From a virus: a stretch of DNA of 59,833 nucleotides. The position numbers and the translations under genes are program-made. Location: IMG/VR virus record IMGVR_UViG_3300020185_000003; one strand, written 5' to 3'. Positions 9,965-47,080 of this stretch are shown piece after piece. The notes beneath the pieces were generated by a model that saw only the letters and a program-made list of their open reading frames with translations, did no database searches and was not told where the DNA came from. Positions within the stretch are counted from its first letter, which is position 1; the number at the start of each line of letters is the position of its first letter.

Positions 9965-9999
9965 GGGGGGGTGTCTTCAAAGACACTCTCCCTTTTTTT
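9965..9999 (+). terminator. rho-independent terminator built on PAL16 copy B
   Basis: GGGGGG-GTGTCTTCAAAGACAC-TCTCCC extended stem followed by T7, 16 nt after the capsid stop. Confidence 0.8.
9971..9986. repeat. PAL16 copy B (GTGTCTTCAAAGACAC, exact)
   Basis: Intergenic; forms the apex of the capsid terminator. Confidence 0.95.
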
Positions 10000-18885: not shown

Positions 18886-19713
18886 ATGCAAAACTATACA
18901 TTAACATATGACGAAGGAGTTCAAGGCTTTCCGTCCTTTTACTCTTACTATCCCGATTTTATGATTGGGATGAATAATTACTTCTATACGTTTAACGGGG
19001 GTAATCTTTACCGTCATAATGTAAATTCTGTTAGGAATAACTTTTATGGTGTACAGTATACATCAAAAGTTCAAAGTGTGTTTAATGACCTTCCATTAGA
19101 GAATAAATTGTTCAAGACCCTAAACTTAGAGGGAGACGATTCTTGGGAGGCTTATATGCGTACAGATATTCAAGACTCAGGATATATTGATGACGATTGG
19201 TTTGAAAAGAAAGAAGGGGCTTGGTTTGCCTTTGTTAGAAACTTAGGCAATGTTCCTGCAGGTGTAGGAGAGTATGCCTTGCGCTCATTGAATGGTATTG
19301 GTAAAAGTTCTGTTGTTACAATTGGAGCAGGTATAGCCACTATTGACTTCCCGTTAACTGTAAACGTAGGTAATATATTAAGTGTTGGCGATATGTTCTA
19401 CTTTGGTTTACCACCTGCGTATAGTAATCCTCAACTTGCAGGACAGGTTACGCAAGTGAACATTAATCTAAGAGCAGGAATCAATCAGGTCGTAATCAAT
19501 ACAGTAGGTTCTACTTTTATACCTACTATTGTTCCGTCACCTGTAACAGTTCCTATTCCTATACAGGATGCTTACTTTTTGTATATCAAGAACGCCATTT
19601 CTGAGTCTCACGGAGTGCTTGGTCACTACTGTGTTTTTGATATTGAAAACGGCAATACTAATAAAACAGAACTGTTTGCAGTTGAGTCGGAAGTAATGAA
19701 ATCCTTCCCATAA
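18886..19713 (+). CDS. hypothetical structural protein
   Basis: 275-aa ORF. Confidence 0.7.
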   Translation: MQNYTLTYDEGVQGFPSFYSYYPDFMIGMNNYFYTFNGGNLYRHNVNSVRNNFYGVQYTSKVQSVFNDLPLENKLFKTLNLEGDDSWEAYMRTDIQDSGYIDDDWFEKKEGAWFAFVRNLGNVPAGVGEYALRSLNGIGKSSVVTIGAGIATIDFPLTVNVGNILSVGDMFYFGLPPAYSNPQLAGQVTQVNINLRAGINQVVINTVGSTFIPTIVPSPVTVPIPIQDAYFLYIKNAISESHGVLGHYCVFDIENGNTNKTELFAVESEVMKSFP

Positions 19714-42681: not shown

Positions 42682-43761
42682 TTAGTTAAACAATGCTACT
42701 TCGTTATCTGTGAACCAACCGCCACACGCACTGCAGTGGTAGTGGTTAAACCCATCGTACTCCAAGTCAGAGAAACAATCAATGCAGGATGGCTTCTCTA
42801 CATAAACCTCTTCCCTCTCATTAAAGACCTCATCGAAATAAGAAAGTTGTGTGCATTCTTTTTGTGTCTTTGAAGACACTGTCTTGGACTTGGATAGTGT
42901 AAAAGATTTTGGAATGGGCTTCTGAAGAAATGTCTTGTGCATTACCTCCCCACTTCTGATTTGTTTTGGGTTAAAGTATATCCACGCAGTAACTTCTTTA
43001 CCCTGTATGACAACCTGAATCTGCTCACGCTTGTACCATCTCGGATGACCCTCAAGGATATCTAACTTCGCTAAGGTAGAGTCACTTACTTTGAATACGT
43101 CTACCGCCACGTTGTGTCCCACTCCCTTTTGATTTACCAAGAAAGGTAAACCGTTAACGATTAACGGATACTTATCCTTAGTCTTGCCTGAGCCAACAAA
43201 GTCAGAGTTGTAAAGGTGACCGTAGTAGTTGCTATAACCTTTCTTCAATGTTCCGTACACTGCAACCACGTTGTCAAGTAGGACGTTGTCTTTTGAGAAC
43301 CACACGCCATCTCTGTTGGTGTACAGGTGACGATTGTATATCTGATACGATTTGGTCTTGGTGTTGACGCTAACAAACCTGCACTCATACTTCTCAAGTT
43401 CAGTTTTCCATTGGTCTCTTGGCATATCACCTAACATCTCAGCAAGTACCTTGCTATCTGTCTTGTTGTCGTTGCCCAACCCTTTGATGGTTCCGTTCAT
43501 CATCAGCAGTTCGTCTGTGTTCTTACCGCACACAAATGGATGTGTGTTCGCTCGGTTAATCTTACCGACAGTTGCGTATCTGAAATGCGCAATGTATGGT
43601 CGGTCAGTTAATAGTTTCTTGTACTCTTTAGAGTCGTGATAGGTTACCTCAAAGGTGTCCAACCAAACAATGCCCAACCCATCAGGATTGACAGTTGATG
43701 ATTTCTTTAGGACTTCTTGCGATACCTTGCGACCTCTTTGTTTAATGATGATTACACACAT
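42682..43761 (-). CDS. fusion protein: class-II (Ntn, Cys2) glutamine-amidotransferase-like amidohydrolase + AIG2/GGACT-like gamma-glutamyl(amine) cyclotransferase + C-terminal Zn-ribbon
   Basis: N-terminus: MCVIII..NPDGLGIVW..AHFRYATVGKINRANTHPFV..LMMNGTI (YafJ/EgtC-like pattern with the Cys2 nucleophile). Middle: VAVYGTLKKGYSNY...LDILEGHPRWYKRE (AIG2/GGCT pattern). C-terminus: CIDCFSDLEYDGFNHYHCSACGGWF. Confidence 0.75.
   Translation of the reverse strand: MCVIIIKQRGRKVSQEVLKKSSTVNPDGLGIVWLDTFEVTYHDSKEYKKLLTDRPYIAHFRYATVGKINRANTHPFVCGKNTDELLMMNGTIKGLGNDNKTDSKVLAEMLGDMPRDQWKTELEKYECRFVSVNTKTKSYQIYNRHLYTNRDGVWFSKDNVLLDNVVAVYGTLKKGYSNYYGHLYNSDFVGSGKTKDKYPLIVNGLPFLVNQKGVGHNVAVDVFKVSDSTLAKLDILEGHPRWYKREQIQVVIQGKEVTAWIYFNPKQIRSGEVMHKTFLQKPIPKSFTLSKSKTVSSKTQKECTQLSYFDEVFNEREEVYVEKPSCIDCFSDLEYDGFNHYHCSACGGWFTDNEVALFN
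42864..42879. repeat. PAL16 copy H (GTGTCTTTGAAGACAC, exact)
   Basis: Lies inside the GATase-GGCT CDS linker; the sense strand reads T-VSSKT-Q. Confidence 0.95.
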
Positions 43762-44655: not shown

Positions 44656-44817
44656 TTATCGTGTTAATACTGCGGTTAATTTCTGACGTACTATCCAAGG
44701 ATACCTTGATATGTTGTCGTTGAACACTCGGTCAATGGCTTCCCATTTTGAATGTGCAGAGATATTGCAGATATCTTTACCTGCATATCTCACCTTGTAG
44801 TACTGCTTACTTTCCAT
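44656..44817 (-). CDS. small hypothetical protein (53 aa)
   Basis: Hand-translated as MESKQYYKVRYAGKDICNISAHSKWEAIDRVFNDNISRYPWIVRQKLTAVLTR. It fills an otherwise empty 160-nt gap, and its start overlaps the upstream stop by 11 nt. Confidence 0.5.
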   Translation of the reverse strand: MESKQYYKVRYAGKDICNISAHSKWEAIDRVFNDNISRYPWIVRQKLTAVLTR

Positions 44818-45001
44818 CTTTTGCGAACATTAGAACTCCTGCTAAATACAACAGGGTTAAGGTGAACAAACTCACAATACACGTTGAAATAAAATGTGGT
44901 ACGGAACTTACGTCTTGGAATAACGCCAAGATGAAACGACCTGCGTTGAATGTTACTACTGCCAACATTAACGCCATTAAAACTTTGCTTACTTTTTTCA
45001 T
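44807..45001 (-). CDS. small two-TM membrane protein
   Basis: 64 aa with two hydrophobic helices (VLMALMLAVVTF, IVSLFTLTLLYLAGVLMF). It is the first gene downstream of the hammerhead. Confidence 0.6.
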   Translation of the reverse strand: MKKVSKVLMALMLAVVTFNAGRFILALFQDVSSVPHFISTCIVSLFTLTLLYLAGVLMFAKDGK

Positions 45002-45022
45002 TTTGATTTTATTTTATTAGTT

Positions 45023-45075
45023 TCCTGTTTCGTCCTTTGGGACTCATCAGCACAGGCACTCACCTGTGGACAGGA
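45023..45075 (-). ncRNA. hammerhead self-cleaving ribozyme, stem III open (type III)
   Basis: The minus RNA reads UCCUGUC|CACAGG-UGAGUG-CCUGUG-CUGAUGA-GUCC-CAAA-GGAC-GAA-ACAGGA. The complete invariant core is present, along with a GUC cleavage triplet, the A15.1:U16.1 and G10.1:C11.1 pairs, and three perfectly paired stems. Confidence 0.85.
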
Positions 45076-45080
45076 GGATA

Positions 45081-45096
45081 GTGTCCTTGAAGACAC
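45081..45096. repeat. PAL16 copy J (GTGTCCTTGAAGACAC, one mismatch; sense strand same variant as copy D)
   Basis: Intergenic. The stem extends to 12 bp (45076..45101) and directly abuts the hammerhead. Confidence 0.9.
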
Positions 45097-45109
45097 TACC
45101 CTGCTTTTT

Positions 45110-46024
45110 TTAATATCTCCTTGGCGCAGGAGTCTCGGTGAATCCTAACCACCCTTTGATATCCTCGGTCACCTTGCCTGTCTTGATATACTTTTGGAAT
45201 GATACTGCCAAGGTCATTATCTCGTTCACCTTGTCTTGGTTTCTGTCGTACATCGCCATCAGGATTGGTTCTGCCTTCTTCAAGAAAGTCTTGAAATTTC
45301 CGTTTGGATTGTTTACGCTGAAATCAACCAATTCATACATCATCTCGTATCTGCGCATCATCTGTTTTACTGATTGGAATCGGGCAGGAAGACGAAATTC
45401 AATCACGCTACCTTTGTTTAAGCATACGTGATACTTGTTTGAATTGCCTACAGGTAATCCTGCCCAATCTTCTCTATTCTCCTGCATACGGATATTGAAA
45501 CGGCAGTAAGGATTTTGCAATCTGTGACGATACATTGCGTACAGGATGCCTGAATTTTTGCGTACTAAATTCATCAATTCACTACCATCCATCCCTTCTA
45601 CGGCAAGAGAAATGTGTCCGCCACATCGCTTGTCTGATGGGCTATTGGCATCCTCAATAATTCTCTTTGCTTTGTGCATCATATCGTAGACCTTGTTGCG
45701 CCATACTGATGCAGGTAGCAAAGGTAGGATGTTGGTCACTGCTTCGTATCCGCAAGAACCATCACGCTCAAATCCGCAAAGCAATTCGTATTCTCTTACT
45801 GCTCCACGAGATAATTGGTTTTTCTCAATCTCCATTCCGATTGTGAAACGTGAATTGAAATCCGAACCTACCTGCACCAAATTGCGCTTATCAGAATTTT
45901 TCAATTGGGCAATGTCCGAAGATTTTGCACCTTTCTGCATCTCACGAAATTCAGGTTTTCTGTGGTAGTGTTGAACTACTGCTCTGTCTGAGCGATTTTC
46001 GATTTTGTAGATGATACCTTCCAT
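45110..46024 (-). CDS. amidoligase (glutamine-synthetase-like fold, Amidoligase_2-type)
   Basis: TIGMEIEKN, GFERDGSCGYEAVTNILP, CGGHISLAVEG, NPYCRFN and GSVIEFRLPA follow the family motif order as I recall it. Confidence 0.7.
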   Translation of the reverse strand: MEGIIYKIENRSDRAVVQHYHRKPEFREMQKGAKSSDIAQLKNSDKRNLVQVGSDFNSRFTIGMEIEKNQLSRGAVREYELLCGFERDGSCGYEAVTNILPLLPASVWRNKVYDMMHKAKRIIEDANSPSDKRCGGHISLAVEGMDGSELMNLVRKNSGILYAMYRHRLQNPYCRFNIRMQENREDWAGLPVGNSNKYHVCLNKGSVIEFRLPARFQSVKQMMRRYEMMYELVDFSVNNPNGNFKTFLKKAEPILMAMYDRNQDKVNEIMTLAVSFQKYIKTGKVTEDIKGWLGFTETPAPRRY

Positions 46025-46057: not shown

Positions 46058-46103
46058 TGGGCAGTAAGGATTCGAACCTTATGTGTCACCGACTGACCTA
46101 CCC
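46058..46103 (-). ncRNA. tRNA-like element (acceptor stem + D-like arm + T arm, no anticodon arm)
   Basis: The minus RNA reads GGGUAG-GUC-AGUCGGU-GAC-ACA-UAAGG-UUCGAAU-CCUUA-CUGCCC-A. It has a 6-bp acceptor stem (one G.U pair), a canonical T arm and loop, and a D-like loop with GG. Confidence 0.6.
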
Positions 46104-46105
46104 TT

Positions 46106-46121
46106 GTGTCTTTGAAGACAC
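46106..46121. repeat. PAL16 copy K (GTGTCTTTGAAGACAC, exact)
   Basis: Intergenic, 3 nt after stop 46125 and 2 nt before the tRNA-like element (minus sense). Confidence 0.95.
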
Positions 46122-46963: not shown

Positions 46964-46979
46964 GTGTCTTCAAAGACAC
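46964..46979. repeat. PAL16 copy L (GTGTCTTCAAAGACAC, exact)
   Basis: Lies between the divergent promoter boxes (46851 minus, 47336 plus), apparently outside both transcription units. Confidence 0.95.
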
Positions 46980-46995
46980 TTTTGTTTTGATTGTG

Positions 46996-47035
46996 GACAG
47001 GAACGCACACAGGAAGACAGGAACGCACACAGGAA
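46996..47035. repeat. perfect tandem 20-mer x2 (GACAGGAACGCACACAGGAA)
   Basis: 46996..47015 equals 47016..47035. Confidence 0.95.
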
Positions 47036-47036
47036 C

Positions 47037-47054
47037 GAATGCTTTGCCGCATTC
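47037..47054. repeat. inverted repeat GAATGC-TTTGCC-GCATTC
   Basis: Read directly from the sequence. Confidence 0.7.
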
Positions 47055-47080
47055 ATTCTCTGTTGCTCTTTGATTGCGTA

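Follow-up and report, generated by a model that had tools for sequence, protein, structure and literature searches.

What does a compact, self-folding RNA do in the 108-nt gap between two genes that point in the same direction? The question is raised by positions 45002..45109 of the window, that is, the whole 59,833-nt stretch of viral DNA analysed here (IMG/VR record IMGVR_UViG_3300020185_000003), for which an earlier note, made from the letters, had given the correct gap length and had recognized a canonical type III hammerhead ribozyme within the gap. The reading preferred here, to which a probability of roughly 0.7 is assigned from sequence and its comparison, is that a functional type III hammerhead is transcribed here within a leftward polycistronic message, and that it represents one copy of a modular intergenic cassette predicted to cut messages. 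The features on which the argument depends are as follows, from the upstream to the downstream end of the minus strand.

46058..46121, minus strand: sister module upstream of the 304-aa gene, with a palindrome (46106..46121) followed by a tRNA-like element (46058..46103); from the fold
45110..46024, minus strand: gene for a protein of 304 aa, predicted to fold like a glutamine-synthetase-type ligase; from the open reading frame list and a structure model
45076..45101, minus strand: upstream RNA hairpin of 11 bp, palindrome 45081..45096 GUGUCUUCAAGGACAC extended by GGGUA/UAUCC; from the fold in context
45023..45075, minus strand: type III hammerhead ribozyme, 53 nt; from direct reading, Rfam RF00008, clade model R1 and the minimum-free-energy fold
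45070..45075, minus strand: 5' strand of stem III, UCCUGU, pairing with ACAGGA at 45023..45028; U16.1 is the complement of 45070
45069, minus strand: C17 of the GUC triplet, with the predicted scissile bond between the complements of 45069 and 45068; from the Rfam alignment position
45051..45068, minus strand: stem I, CACAGG/CCUGUG and a closing U.G, with loop UGAGUG; from the fold
45044..45050, minus strand: core C3-A9, CUGAUGA; from direct reading
45032..45043, minus strand: stem II, GUCC/GGAC including the G10.1-C11.1 pair, with loop CAAA; from the Rfam alignment and the fold
45023..45031, minus strand: core G12-A13-A14, GAA (45029..45031), and the 3' strand of stem III, ACAGGA (45023..45028); from direct reading
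45002..45022, minus strand: A/U-rich, G-free leader AACUAAUAAAAUAAAAUCAAA between the hammerhead and the start codon
44807..45001, minus strand: gene for a 64-aa hydrophobic protein, probably of the membrane; from the open reading frame list and its translation

The identity of the element as a canonical type III hammerhead is borne out by its fold, by the Rfam alignment and by covariation among its relatives. Read on the minus strand from 45075 to 45023, it consists of UCCUGUC, CACAGG, UGAGUG, CCUGUG, CUGAUGA, GUCC, CAAA, GGAC, GAA and ACAGGA, exactly as had been transcribed before; CUGAUGA and GAA of the invariant core stand in the right order, and the GUC triplet, of the N-U-H type, lies 5' of stem I. 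Stems I and II are closed by loops, stem III is open, and A15.1-U16.1 closes stem III, both in the Rfam alignment and in the minimum-free-energy and centroid folds of the element, alone and in context. The 6 bp reported for stem I are present, with the minor correction that the stem can also be read as 7 bp, including the closing U.G, with a 4-nt loop. Folded alone, the element adopts the hammerhead fold as its minimum-free-energy structure (-20.6 kcal/mol, z = -2.7); in a 136-nt context, an 11-bp hairpin at 45076..45101 adjoins stem III and is followed by the hammerhead (-36.8 kcal/mol, z = -4.3), and 0 of 200 shuffles were equally stable.

The covariance-model match to the hammerhead extends over 45022..45076. 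In RF00008 (Hammerhead_3), 54 of 54 model positions are aligned with 47.1 bits, corresponding to E = 1.5e-9 for the 301 nt searched and to 3e-7 for the whole window on both strands with 4227 families. The curated gathering score of this family, an operational rather than a biological criterion, is 48.5, which places the element 1.4 bits under it; as a result, a default Rfam scan omits the hammerhead. A score below the family threshold had been named beforehand as grounds for rejection, and formally that ground applies; the shortfall is a property of the whole phage clade. Only 1 of approximately 35 clade members in 144 kb passes the RF00008 gathering threshold, and routine annotation misses about 97% of them, because the clade scores just under it. 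When the clade-specific model R1 was run over the window with filters off, a single match was obtained with 79.8 bits, the next best reaching 18.8. A second credible hammerhead was not found in the window by core pattern search, nor a second, degenerate one by the filters-off model search; further ribozyme classes were likewise absent from the window (Rfam, E <= 1) and from 12 related loci (Rfam, gathering threshold). A coding role of the plus strand in this region was considered and rejected, the open reading frame 44748..45020 stopping before the element and running antisense to a conserved gene.

Beyond the window, 81 distinct relatives of the hammerhead were collected from related viral and metagenomic contigs. 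The exact 24-nt core is present in 12 IMG/VR contigs, 42 stretches contain the composite of palindrome and hammerhead, with as many as 4 copies per 4 kb, and the clade model recovers 101 hammerheads in 522 kb. All three stems covary, both sides having changed in 12 of 17 pairs; 92% of the alignment cells are paired, compared with 71% in shuffles and 32-44% with slid partners, and 147 compensatory cells were observed as against 43 in shuffles. Stem I is 99.6% paired across the clade, with both sides changed in 6 of its 7 pairs; in stem II, 3 of 4 pairs covary, and stem III, of 4-6 bp, covaries as well. The two loops are conserved while their own stems vary, loop I keeping the consensus UG(A/U)GUG across differing stems and loop II reading NAAA in most members, a pattern that bears indirectly on the tertiary contact of the two loops on which fast cleavage at physiological Mg2+ depends. 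The cleavage triplets of the 81 members are GUC (61), GUA (16) and GUU (4), with GUG in none. Pairing, NUH triplet and core are visibly under purifying selection in these 81 diverged copies, which shows that the catalytic fold itself is maintained.

Part of this regularity is due to sampling. Many loci were retrieved by patterns that required both palindrome and core, and for this reason two results are partly built in: the invariance of the core, in which CUGANGA varies only at N7 and GAAA is present in 81 of 81 members, and the association with the palindrome, which immediately precedes the hammerhead in 73 of the 88 distinct contexts. Free of this bias are the extra copies found by the model within retrieved loci and the protein-anchored loci L013 and L053-L061.

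The association of hairpin and hammerhead proposed in the earlier note is real and general, and it belongs to a recurrent layout: a stop codon, a hairpin of 10-12 bp built on the palindrome GTGTCTTCAAAGACAC, the hammerhead, whose stem III is stacked on that hairpin, a leader and an ATG. In the clade, a median of 31 nt separates the previous stop codon from the hammerhead, and a median of 20 nt separates the hammerhead from the next ATG (13-29 nt in 68 of 88), in tightly packed genes of the same strand. At the window locus, the slot lies in sense orientation between the same-strand open reading frames 45110..46024 and 44807..45001; hairpin, ribozyme and leader fill the 108 nt, and an independent promoter has no room. 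The leaders of the clade consist of 54% A and 1% G, with a Shine-Dalgarno-like motif in 0 of 78. Genes of at least 40 unrelated families, most of them encoding 50-99 aa, stand downstream of the cassette, and small proteins homologous to the 64-aa protein follow the hammerhead in L005, L036 and L053-L057.

The upstream hairpin had been described as having 12 bp and starting directly at the ribozyme; it is present and has no spacer to stem III, its size being better given as 11-12 bp with G.U pairs included. Its apex is the palindrome GUGUCUUCAAAGACAC, a conserved 16-nt unit, and the extensions of the stem pair only in the sense RNA. Beside hammerheads, these extensions add a mean of 4.55 bp and contain 82 G.U against 1 A.C, whereas such an extension is missing from 119 of the 164 palindromes that have no hammerhead beside them; the hairpin adjacent to the hammerhead is therefore an RNA element of the same strand, and a hairpin acting only at the DNA level is ruled out by the G.U bias for these copies. 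In most of the other 14 contexts, a different GC-rich hairpin was seen by eye directly upstream. In 44 of 68 cassettes, hairpin and stem III are separated by 0 or -1 nt. The spacing is -1 in 21 of 68 and -2 or less in 13 of 68, and 23 of 68 show no overlap; in about half of the cassettes, the last pair of the hairpin thus competes with the first pair of stem III (gap -1). The window contains 14 palindromes and one hammerhead, and several of the palindromes lie within open reading frames or antisense to them, for which reason the palindrome serves another role as well, perhaps at the DNA level. Together with a U-tract, it forms classic terminators at 9971 and 56463, and many copies stand 12-25 nt before start codons with nothing between.

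A hammerhead occupies the slot downstream of the 304-aa gene in the window and in nine relatives, among them L053-L057, L061 and L013/L014. Homologous phages with non-compensatory changes at this locus had been named as evidence that would count against the ribozyme; in fact, the hammerhead is kept behind the 304-aa gene in relatives with 88%, 75%, 74%, 56% and 53% protein identity. The changes in these syntenic copies are compensatory, stem II passing from GUCC/GGAC to GACC/GGUC and all three stems having changed in L013, and change in the core is limited to N7 (CUGACGA).

At L059 and L060, the same slot is occupied by a palindrome and a tRNA-like element with acceptor and T arm. A sister module of this kind also lies in the window, upstream of the 304-aa gene, where the palindrome is followed by an acceptor-like stem of 6 bp, together with a D-like hairpin, a T arm whose loop is GGUUCGAAUCC, and a discriminator A; the acceptor stem is coaxial with a T stem-loop bearing a UUCGAAU-type loop. 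The sister module folds with -22.6 kcal/mol (z = -4.2), and across four orthologues its tRNA-like element is 100% paired, both sides having changed in 5 of 15 pairs. The element at 46058..46103 is classed as tRNA-like and not as a tRNA because it has no anticodon arm and is called as a tRNA gene by neither ARAGORN nor Rfam; ARAGORN called no tRNA among the replacement and sister elements, including those of L059 and L060. The slot upstream of the 304-aa gene carries palindrome and tRNA-like element in the window and in L053-L057, and palindrome and hammerhead in L002, L010, L022, L027 and L038; among close relatives, a slot may contain a hammerhead, a tRNA-like element, the palindrome only or nothing. 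Hairpins composed of acceptor stem and T stem-loop are efficient substrates of RNase P (PMC11143913), and we infer that the tRNA-like elements are cut by RNase P or RNase Z.

According to the preferred reading, the ribozyme would cut on the 3' side of C17 (the complement of 45069) as soon as transcription had passed the 3' strand of stem III. Established hammerhead chemistry predicts a 2',3'-cyclic phosphate on the upstream product and a 5'-OH on the downstream product. The message of the 304-aa gene would end in the stable hairpin and a 7-nt tail, UCCUGUC>p, with the 2',3'-cyclic phosphate, and an end capped in this manner would be a poor substrate for 3' exonucleases. The earlier note had likewise expected the upstream message to end in a hairpin, which fits the strand-specific, G.U-rich extensions of the stem. 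The message of the 64-aa gene would begin at the first base pair of stem I, bearing a 5'-OH; the folded ribozyme body would form its 5' end, with an unstructured leader behind it, and the neighboring cistrons would be uncoupled in both stability and translation. We infer that cleavage occurs, that it leaves these ends and that stability and translation are affected.

The 304-aa protein had been labeled an amidoligase, a name that finds no support in any sequence profile (Pfam, NCBIfam, PHROGs, PDB sequences or the family profile); it has 692 metagenomic homologues, and the 120 listed are all without a Pfam domain. Its structure model has a pLDDT of 86.9, and the top PDB fold matches are all GS, GmaS, PafA/Dop or YbdK (best E = 1.2e-4), with probabilities of up to 1.0, but a TM-score of only about 0.3. 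The amidoligase reading is thus a lead that comes solely from a predicted GS-like fold with a low TM-score.

The cassette is used by a group of phages that have podophage-like genomes of ~60 kb and are related to phages of Flavobacterium and Cellulophaga. In GenBank, the nearest genome is MW202828.1, whose terminase is 74.6% identical; it lacks both hammerhead and palindrome, from which it follows that the cassette is dispensable. GenBank phage DNA contained no match to the 3 kb around the site, in near and distant search modes, or to the 83-nt cassette. A cultured Flavobacterium phage, vB_FspP_elemoA_7-9A (MT497017.1), which grows on Flavobacterium sp. BAL314, possesses a single related hammerhead, with the triplet GUA at 19134..19132 of the minus strand. 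It lies in an intergenic region between divergent genes and precedes the first gene of the leftward operon by 13 nt; the prediction is therefore testable at the bench. When 185,579 representative genomes of bacteria and archaea were scanned for the composite, one match was obtained, in a coding sequence of an Oscillospiraceae metagenome-assembled genome and unmatched by the model; consequently, it yields nothing for prophages and no host assignment.

Several other explanations can be weighed against message cutting. An unlikely one holds that the palindrome belongs to a promoter or operator, that transcription starts in or just before it, and that the hammerhead, instead of separating two cistrons, strips a short 5'-triphosphate leader from the message and leaves it with a 5'-OH. 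The palindromes that stand directly before start codons would agree with it, as would the place of the elemoA_7-9A hammerhead at the head of an operon and the haloviruses HF1/HF2, in which a mapped transcript 5' end coincides with the hammerhead cut (PMC3088659). However, the G.U-rich extension needs the 5' arm upstream of the palindrome on the same RNA, the same-strand genes are tightly packed, with only a short distance from the previous stop codon to the cassette, and palindrome and U-tract make terminators elsewhere in the window. Trimming of 5' ends and separation of cistrons are not mutually exclusive. It is rather improbable that the cassette is a mobile or recombinogenic unit of ~100 nt, kept mainly for shuffling small genes between phages, with cleavage incidental. 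The promoter-stem-loop cassettes of T4-type phages provide the comparison, and such a unit would account for the many unrelated small-gene families downstream, for slot occupancy that differs among close relatives and for its absence from MW202828.1. Purifying selection on pairing, NUH triplet and core speaks against shuffling as the main purpose, and the fact that a different RNA-cleavage substrate takes its place at the same slot indicates that selection acts on cutting rather than on sequence homology.

The competition between hairpin and stem III could permit regulation instead of constitutive cutting, with cleavage tuned, for example, by temperature, Mg2+ or a protein that binds the hairpin. 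Such a switch is highly improbable as the explanation of the element: the overlaps between the two helices and the centroid fold of the window element, which assigns the contested pair to the hairpin, lean toward it, and the conserved apex suggests a specific binding partner, but the overlap is mostly limited to one pair, the active fold is the one of minimum free energy, 23 of the 68 cassettes are free of overlap, and coaxial stacking would help the active fold. Hardly credible is a chance or decayed, inactive motif, to which the sub-threshold Rfam score and the single copy in the window might point; the E-value for the window, the syntenic conservation with compensatory changes and the family-wide covariation all oppose it, and the comparative data already contradict it. 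Message cutting by a functional hammerhead is retained as the preferred reading. A broader proposal, held tentatively and at somewhat less than even odds, is that a widespread group of ~60-kb uncultured phages, with probable hosts among the Bacteroidota, punctuate their non-structural operons with palindrome-anchored cassettes, in which two unrelated cutting devices, the hammerhead and a tRNA-like substrate of host RNase P or RNase Z, can replace each other at one slot. If true, it would suggest a specific factor that recognizes the palindrome, and the interchangeable devices would be natural comparative evidence for the role in cistron separation and message ends that has long been proposed, and is unproven, for phage hammerheads.

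Hammerheads between phage genes are already known, and the novelty is the informative setting. The processing idea finds unusually clean conditions here: the geometry of the cassette is fixed, the upstream product would be capped by a strand-specific hairpin, the leader is free of Shine-Dalgarno motifs and set at a fixed distance from the ATG, and tRNA-like elements are natural replacements of the ribozyme at orthologous slots. In the literature searched, nothing relevant was found on hammerheads in Cellulophaga or Flavobacterium phages or on interchange of hammerhead and tRNA-like elements, and the hairpin-hammerhead composite was not encountered. With the members of RF00008, from viroids, satellite RNAs, plants and bacteria, the window element shares the CUGANGA...GAAA core, the NUH triplet, the A15.1-U16.1 and G10.1-C11.1 pairs, closed stems I and II and an open stem III. 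Relative to the model consensus, its loop II lacks 4 nt, and its stem III is short; moreover, it resides in the messenger RNA of a double-stranded DNA phage rather than a circular RNA replicon.

In the early region of phage T7, RNase III cuts conserved intercistronic hairpins, by which one long transcript is converted into several messages, and each upstream message is left with a protective 3' hairpin. The cassette differs in that the predicted cut is made by the RNA itself, beside the hairpin and not within it, with no host enzyme needed and with predicted 5'-OH and cyclic-phosphate ends.

The role of most self-cleaving ribozymes of bacteria and phages has been described as largely elusive (PMC6765202). 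Hammerheads flanking genes in polycistronic RNAs of prophages cleave in vitro and in vivo, and their function in processing into single-gene mRNAs has been proposed since 2011 (PMC3088659). The intergenic examples of phages and prophages described by Perreault et al. (2011), among them the Agrobacterium triple around ardA, PaP3, Bcep176 and the 'HHphage' of HF1/HF2 (PMC3088659), resemble the present ones in being intergenic and in sense orientation, often several per gene block, near the next start codon (13 nt in HF1/HF2) and with polycistronic processing proposed. Unlike them, the hammerheads of this clade have a conserved hairpin fused to stem III and a leader fixed at ~20 nt, and tRNA-like elements substitute for them at the same slots.

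A synthetic counterpart is the insulator RiboJ, a type III hammerhead of sTRSV with an added hairpin, which raises expression of the downstream gene (PMC6206723). Like the cassette, RiboJ is placed just upstream of a translation start, and after cutting, its ribozyme body remains on the 5' end and insulates the downstream message against the sequence before it, an arrangement to which the cassette may be likened. The cassette is, however, natural, its hairpin is located upstream and would stay with the upstream rather than the downstream product, and its leader has no Shine-Dalgarno motif. Similarly, the sister module and the elements of L059 and L060 recall tRNA punctuation and the non-tRNA substrates of RNase P, which include model acceptor/T-arm hairpins and mRNAs of polycistronic operons (PMC11143913), in that a canonical T arm with an acceptor-like stem stacked upon it stands between cistrons, whereas, in contrast to tRNA punctuation, these elements are not tRNA genes and carry no anticodon arm.

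When re-read, the minus strand at 45075..45023 was identical to the sequence in the earlier note, which had proposed a type III hammerhead there: 5'-UCCUGUC CACAGG UGAGUG CCUGUG CUGAUGA GUCC CAAA GGAC GAA ACAGGA-3'. When 45023..45075 (-) is folded alone, the minimum-free-energy structure and the centroid are both the hammerhead (-20.6 kcal/mol, z = -2.7). In a 136-nt context, an 11-bp hairpin (45076..45101) is formed flush against the 6-bp stem III and is followed by stems I and II, with an energy of -36.8 kcal/mol (z = -4.3) and 0 shuffles equally stable. In the Rfam search proposed in the same note, Hammerhead_3 aligns with the element from end to end, with E = 1.5e-9 over 301 nt and E = 3e-7 over the whole window with all 4227 Rfam families, but its 47.1 bits fall short of the gathering score. 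Because that curated score is set at 48.5, a default Rfam scan lists only a tRNA; the clade as a whole lies just under this cut-off, with 1 of about 35 members listed. As the sequence, fold and Rfam E-values agree, the element is genuinely present, far beyond chance, and pattern and model searches alike count a single hammerhead in the window. Its surroundings are as follows.

46058..46121, minus strand: 16-nt palindrome (46106..46121) and a tRNA-like element, upstream of the 304-aa gene
45110..46024, minus strand: 304-aa ORF, upstream neighbour of the hammerhead
44807..45001, minus strand: 64-aa hydrophobic ORF, downstream neighbour of the hammerhead

The window covers all or most of a phage genome, encoding a large terminase, portal, virion proteins, a helicase, a primase-like protein, GroEL and one tRNA-Arg. 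The closest relative by terminase is MW202828.1, an uncultured podovirus from Manatee Spring (74.6% amino-acid identity), followed at greater distance by Flavobacterium phages of the genus Elemovirus (46%) and by Cellulophaga phages; a nucleotide match for the window was not found among GenBank phages. The hammerhead's flanks belong to a minus-strand gene block that runs on into SLT, GATase/GGACT and replication genes, and for which an "early" status is plausible. The 304-aa ORF, named an amidoligase in the earlier note, has 692 metagenomic homologues (E <= 0.001) and belongs to a large, metagenome-only family; no Pfam domain occurs among the 120 listed of these 692, and the ORF itself has no sequence-profile match. 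Its structure, predicted with confidence (pLDDT 86.9), matches solely glutamine-synthetase-fold ligases (GS, GmaS, PafA/Dop, YbdK), though at low TM-score; the name may therefore be taken as reasonable but unproven. A nearby GATase/gamma-glutamyl-cyclotransferase (GGACT) fusion gene at 42682..43761 is consistent with it.

Homologous loci, to which the earlier note had looked for a comparative test, were retrieved via the neighbouring 304-aa protein and not via the RNA, and in each of the following relatives a hammerhead lies directly after the 304-aa gene (protein identity 88% in L053/L054, 75% in L055, 74% in L056/L057, 56% in L061 and 53% in L013/L014). Relative to the window, the L053 hammerhead has N7 changed from U to C and loop II from CAAA to AAAA, stem II in L055 and L056 reads GACC/GGUC in place of GUCC/GGAC, and stems I, II and III are all rebuilt in L013. 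No stem-breaking or non-N7 core change was seen at the syntenic sites behind 304-aa homologues; judged from sequence, the differences are of the kind that a working ribozyme tolerates.

The exact 24-nt core with stem II recurs in 12 IMG/VR contigs of 35–64 kb, at sites where the stem I sequences differ yet are self-complementary and the palindrome recurs just upstream; similarly, a pattern of palindrome, GTC and CTGATGA matched 42 stretches, with up to four copies in 4 kb. In a covariation alignment of 37 distinct, cleanly aligned hammerheads, 92% of cells are paired, against 71% when shuffled and 32–44% with slid partners, and 12 of 17 pairs have both-sided changes; stem I is 99.6% paired, with six of its seven pairs covarying. 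The alignment served to build a covariance model, R1; with it, 522 kb of related loci yield 101 hammerheads, and the window yields one, scoring 79.8 bits. Among 81 distinct sequences, the cleavage triplet is GUC in 61, GUA in 16, GUU in 4 and GUG in 0, the core is CUGAUGA in 73, CUGACGA in 7 and CUGAAGA in 1, which makes N7 the sole variable core position, and GAAA is invariant, counts that carry a retrieval bias in that some patterns demanded GTC, CTGATGA and GAAA, with the GUA, GUU and CUGACGA variants coming from the freer model search. The ribozyme motif is genuine and canonical and is maintained by selection, and the earlier interpretation of the element is supported.

Several clade variants (L023, L028, L047, L037, L019 and others) have non-canonical 10.1/11.1 positions, A/A in 6, U/U in 11 and U/C in 2, while the remainder of stem II still covaries. 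A cultured relative, Flavobacterium phage vB_FspP_elemoA_7-9A (MT497017.1), has at 19083..19139 (-) a type III variant whose triplet is GUA and whose core is CUGAAGA (R1, 40.5 bits; Rfam, 36.3 bits), located 13 nt ahead of the first gene of a leftward operon and not annotated in that record; no copy of the palindrome occurs in this phage.

The hammerhead forms part of a compact cassette. Over 88 distinct contexts, the median distance from stop codon to hammerhead is 31 nt and that from hammerhead to the next ORF-opening ATG is 20 nt, with 68 of the 88 within 13–29 nt. Leader composition is 54% A, 29% U, 17% C and 1% G, and 0 of 78 leaders contain a Shine-Dalgarno-like motif; a leader of this kind suits translation initiation of the Bacteroidota type, and a Bacteroidota host is inferred. 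The palindrome GTGTCTTCAAAGACAC lies in forward orientation 0–5 nt upstream of the hammerhead in 73 of the 88 contexts, and in most of the other 14, whose upstream sequences were read by eye, another GC-rich hairpin stands there instead. Beside hammerheads, the stem of the palindrome continues for a further 4.55 pairs on average, with 82 G.U against 1 A.C; elsewhere, 119 of 164 palindromes have no extension. Since G.U pairs form in the sense RNA only, the hairpin is an RNA element on the ribozyme's own transcript. The hairpin is typically 10–12 bp and stem III 4–6 bp, and the gap between them is 0 or -1 nt in 44 of 68 cases, so that both can stack as one continuous helix. In some cassettes of L003, L006, L007, L036, L041, L042 and L046, a second conserved hairpin, AAACCGGAGGUUUGAAACCCUCC, stands between hammerhead and start codon, giving a leader of about 41–44 nt.

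The window contains 14 copies of the 16-nt palindrome, GTGTCTTCAA[A/G]GACAC, where 0.5 would be expected (2856, 9971, 18855, 30944, 33124, 38460, 40676, 42864, 44178, 45081, 46106, 46964, 48769 and 56463). Those at 9971 and 56463 are classic terminators with a U-tract, and five or six lie inside ORFs in differing frames (terminase, helicase, GATase/GGACT, SLT and, antisense, GroEL), the GroEL copy keeping its place in six related loci. Given these intra-ORF and antisense copies, the palindrome has to serve some additional purpose beyond the hammerhead cassette. Following the copy at 46964, short direct repeats "ggacaggaacgcacacaggaagacaggaacgcacacaggaacga" occupy 46980..47060 (+), a small-ORF region near the tRNA-Arg gene.

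Upstream of the 304-aa gene, the order is palindrome, 45-nt tRNA-like element, A-rich leader and ATG. A 6-bp acceptor-like stem is combined in this element with a small D-like hairpin and a canonical T arm (loop GGUUCGAAUCC); it lacks an anticodon arm, and is not called as a tRNA by ARAGORN or Rfam. It is kept in L053, L055 and L056, with 100% pairing and compensatory, both-sided changes in 5 of 15 pairs. Members of the 304-aa gene family in five other phages instead have palindrome and hammerhead ahead of them, and in L059 and L060 the slot after the 304-aa gene holds a palindrome and a tRNA-like acceptor/T-arm element where the window has its hammerhead. A strict-rule scan yielded ten distinct palindrome and tRNA-like elements, including the window's own, its orthologues in L053 and L055, and others in L004, L007, L008, L011 and L035; another is found in L018. 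RNase P cleaves acceptor-stem/T-stem-loop hairpins efficiently (PMC11143913). The interchange of hammerhead and tRNA-like element, two unrelated predicted ways of cutting RNA, at one position behind the same hairpin is the strongest indirect argument for the cut itself as the selected function. The tRNA-like sequence after the palindrome is longer in L004 (5529..5621, -), L011, L007, L008 and L035, at 85–93 nt with a large insertion; the L004 copy scores as a tRNA in Rfam (35.9 bits), with no ARAGORN call.

Comparative anatomy lends good support to a putative role in cutting between cistrons. In the most likely course, the 304-aa gene and hairpin would be transcribed through, stems I and II would fold, and, once transcription has delivered the 3' strand of stem III, the ribozyme would close on the hairpin-stacked stem III and cut after C17, with product release through the short stem III. 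The upstream message would then finish with the hairpin, UCCUGUC and a cyclic phosphate; the downstream message would start with a 5'-OH inside stem I and retain the ribozyme body, followed by an unstructured leader. Such messages might resist 3' exonucleases and be poorly recognised by 5'-end-dependent decay, and translation might be insulated from upstream context. The analogues for these consequences are T7 RNase III sites and RiboJ (PMC6206723).

Another possible role of the hammerhead is 5'-end trimming of transcripts that start at or in the palindrome, as would fit the elemo phage copy at an operon head and the HF1/HF2 precedent (PMC3088659). Against this, the hairpin's 5' arm is transcribed and the cassettes are packed closely behind stop codons, both of which speak for read-through RNA here. 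The diversity of downstream genes and patchy slot occupancy fit a cassette that moves as a recombination unit, but this would leave selection on the catalytic fold unexplained. Where hairpin and stem III overlap, a regulatory competition between them is possible. A chance origin of the motif is excluded by the comparative data.

Intergenic hammerheads of phages and prophages were described in 2011, with several to a gene block and activity both in vitro and in vivo, and were proposed to process polycistronic RNA (PMC3088659). As late as 2019, a review described the biology of these ribozymes as still largely elusive (PMC6765202). The present ribozyme is itself canonical, and its class and phage setting are already known. 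In the literature searched, no description was found of the fused hairpin with conserved apex, the fixed leader, the hammerhead/tRNA-like interchange, or the clade's position just under the Rfam threshold. The cassette and its tRNA-like alternates make the old question of the ribozyme's role testable.
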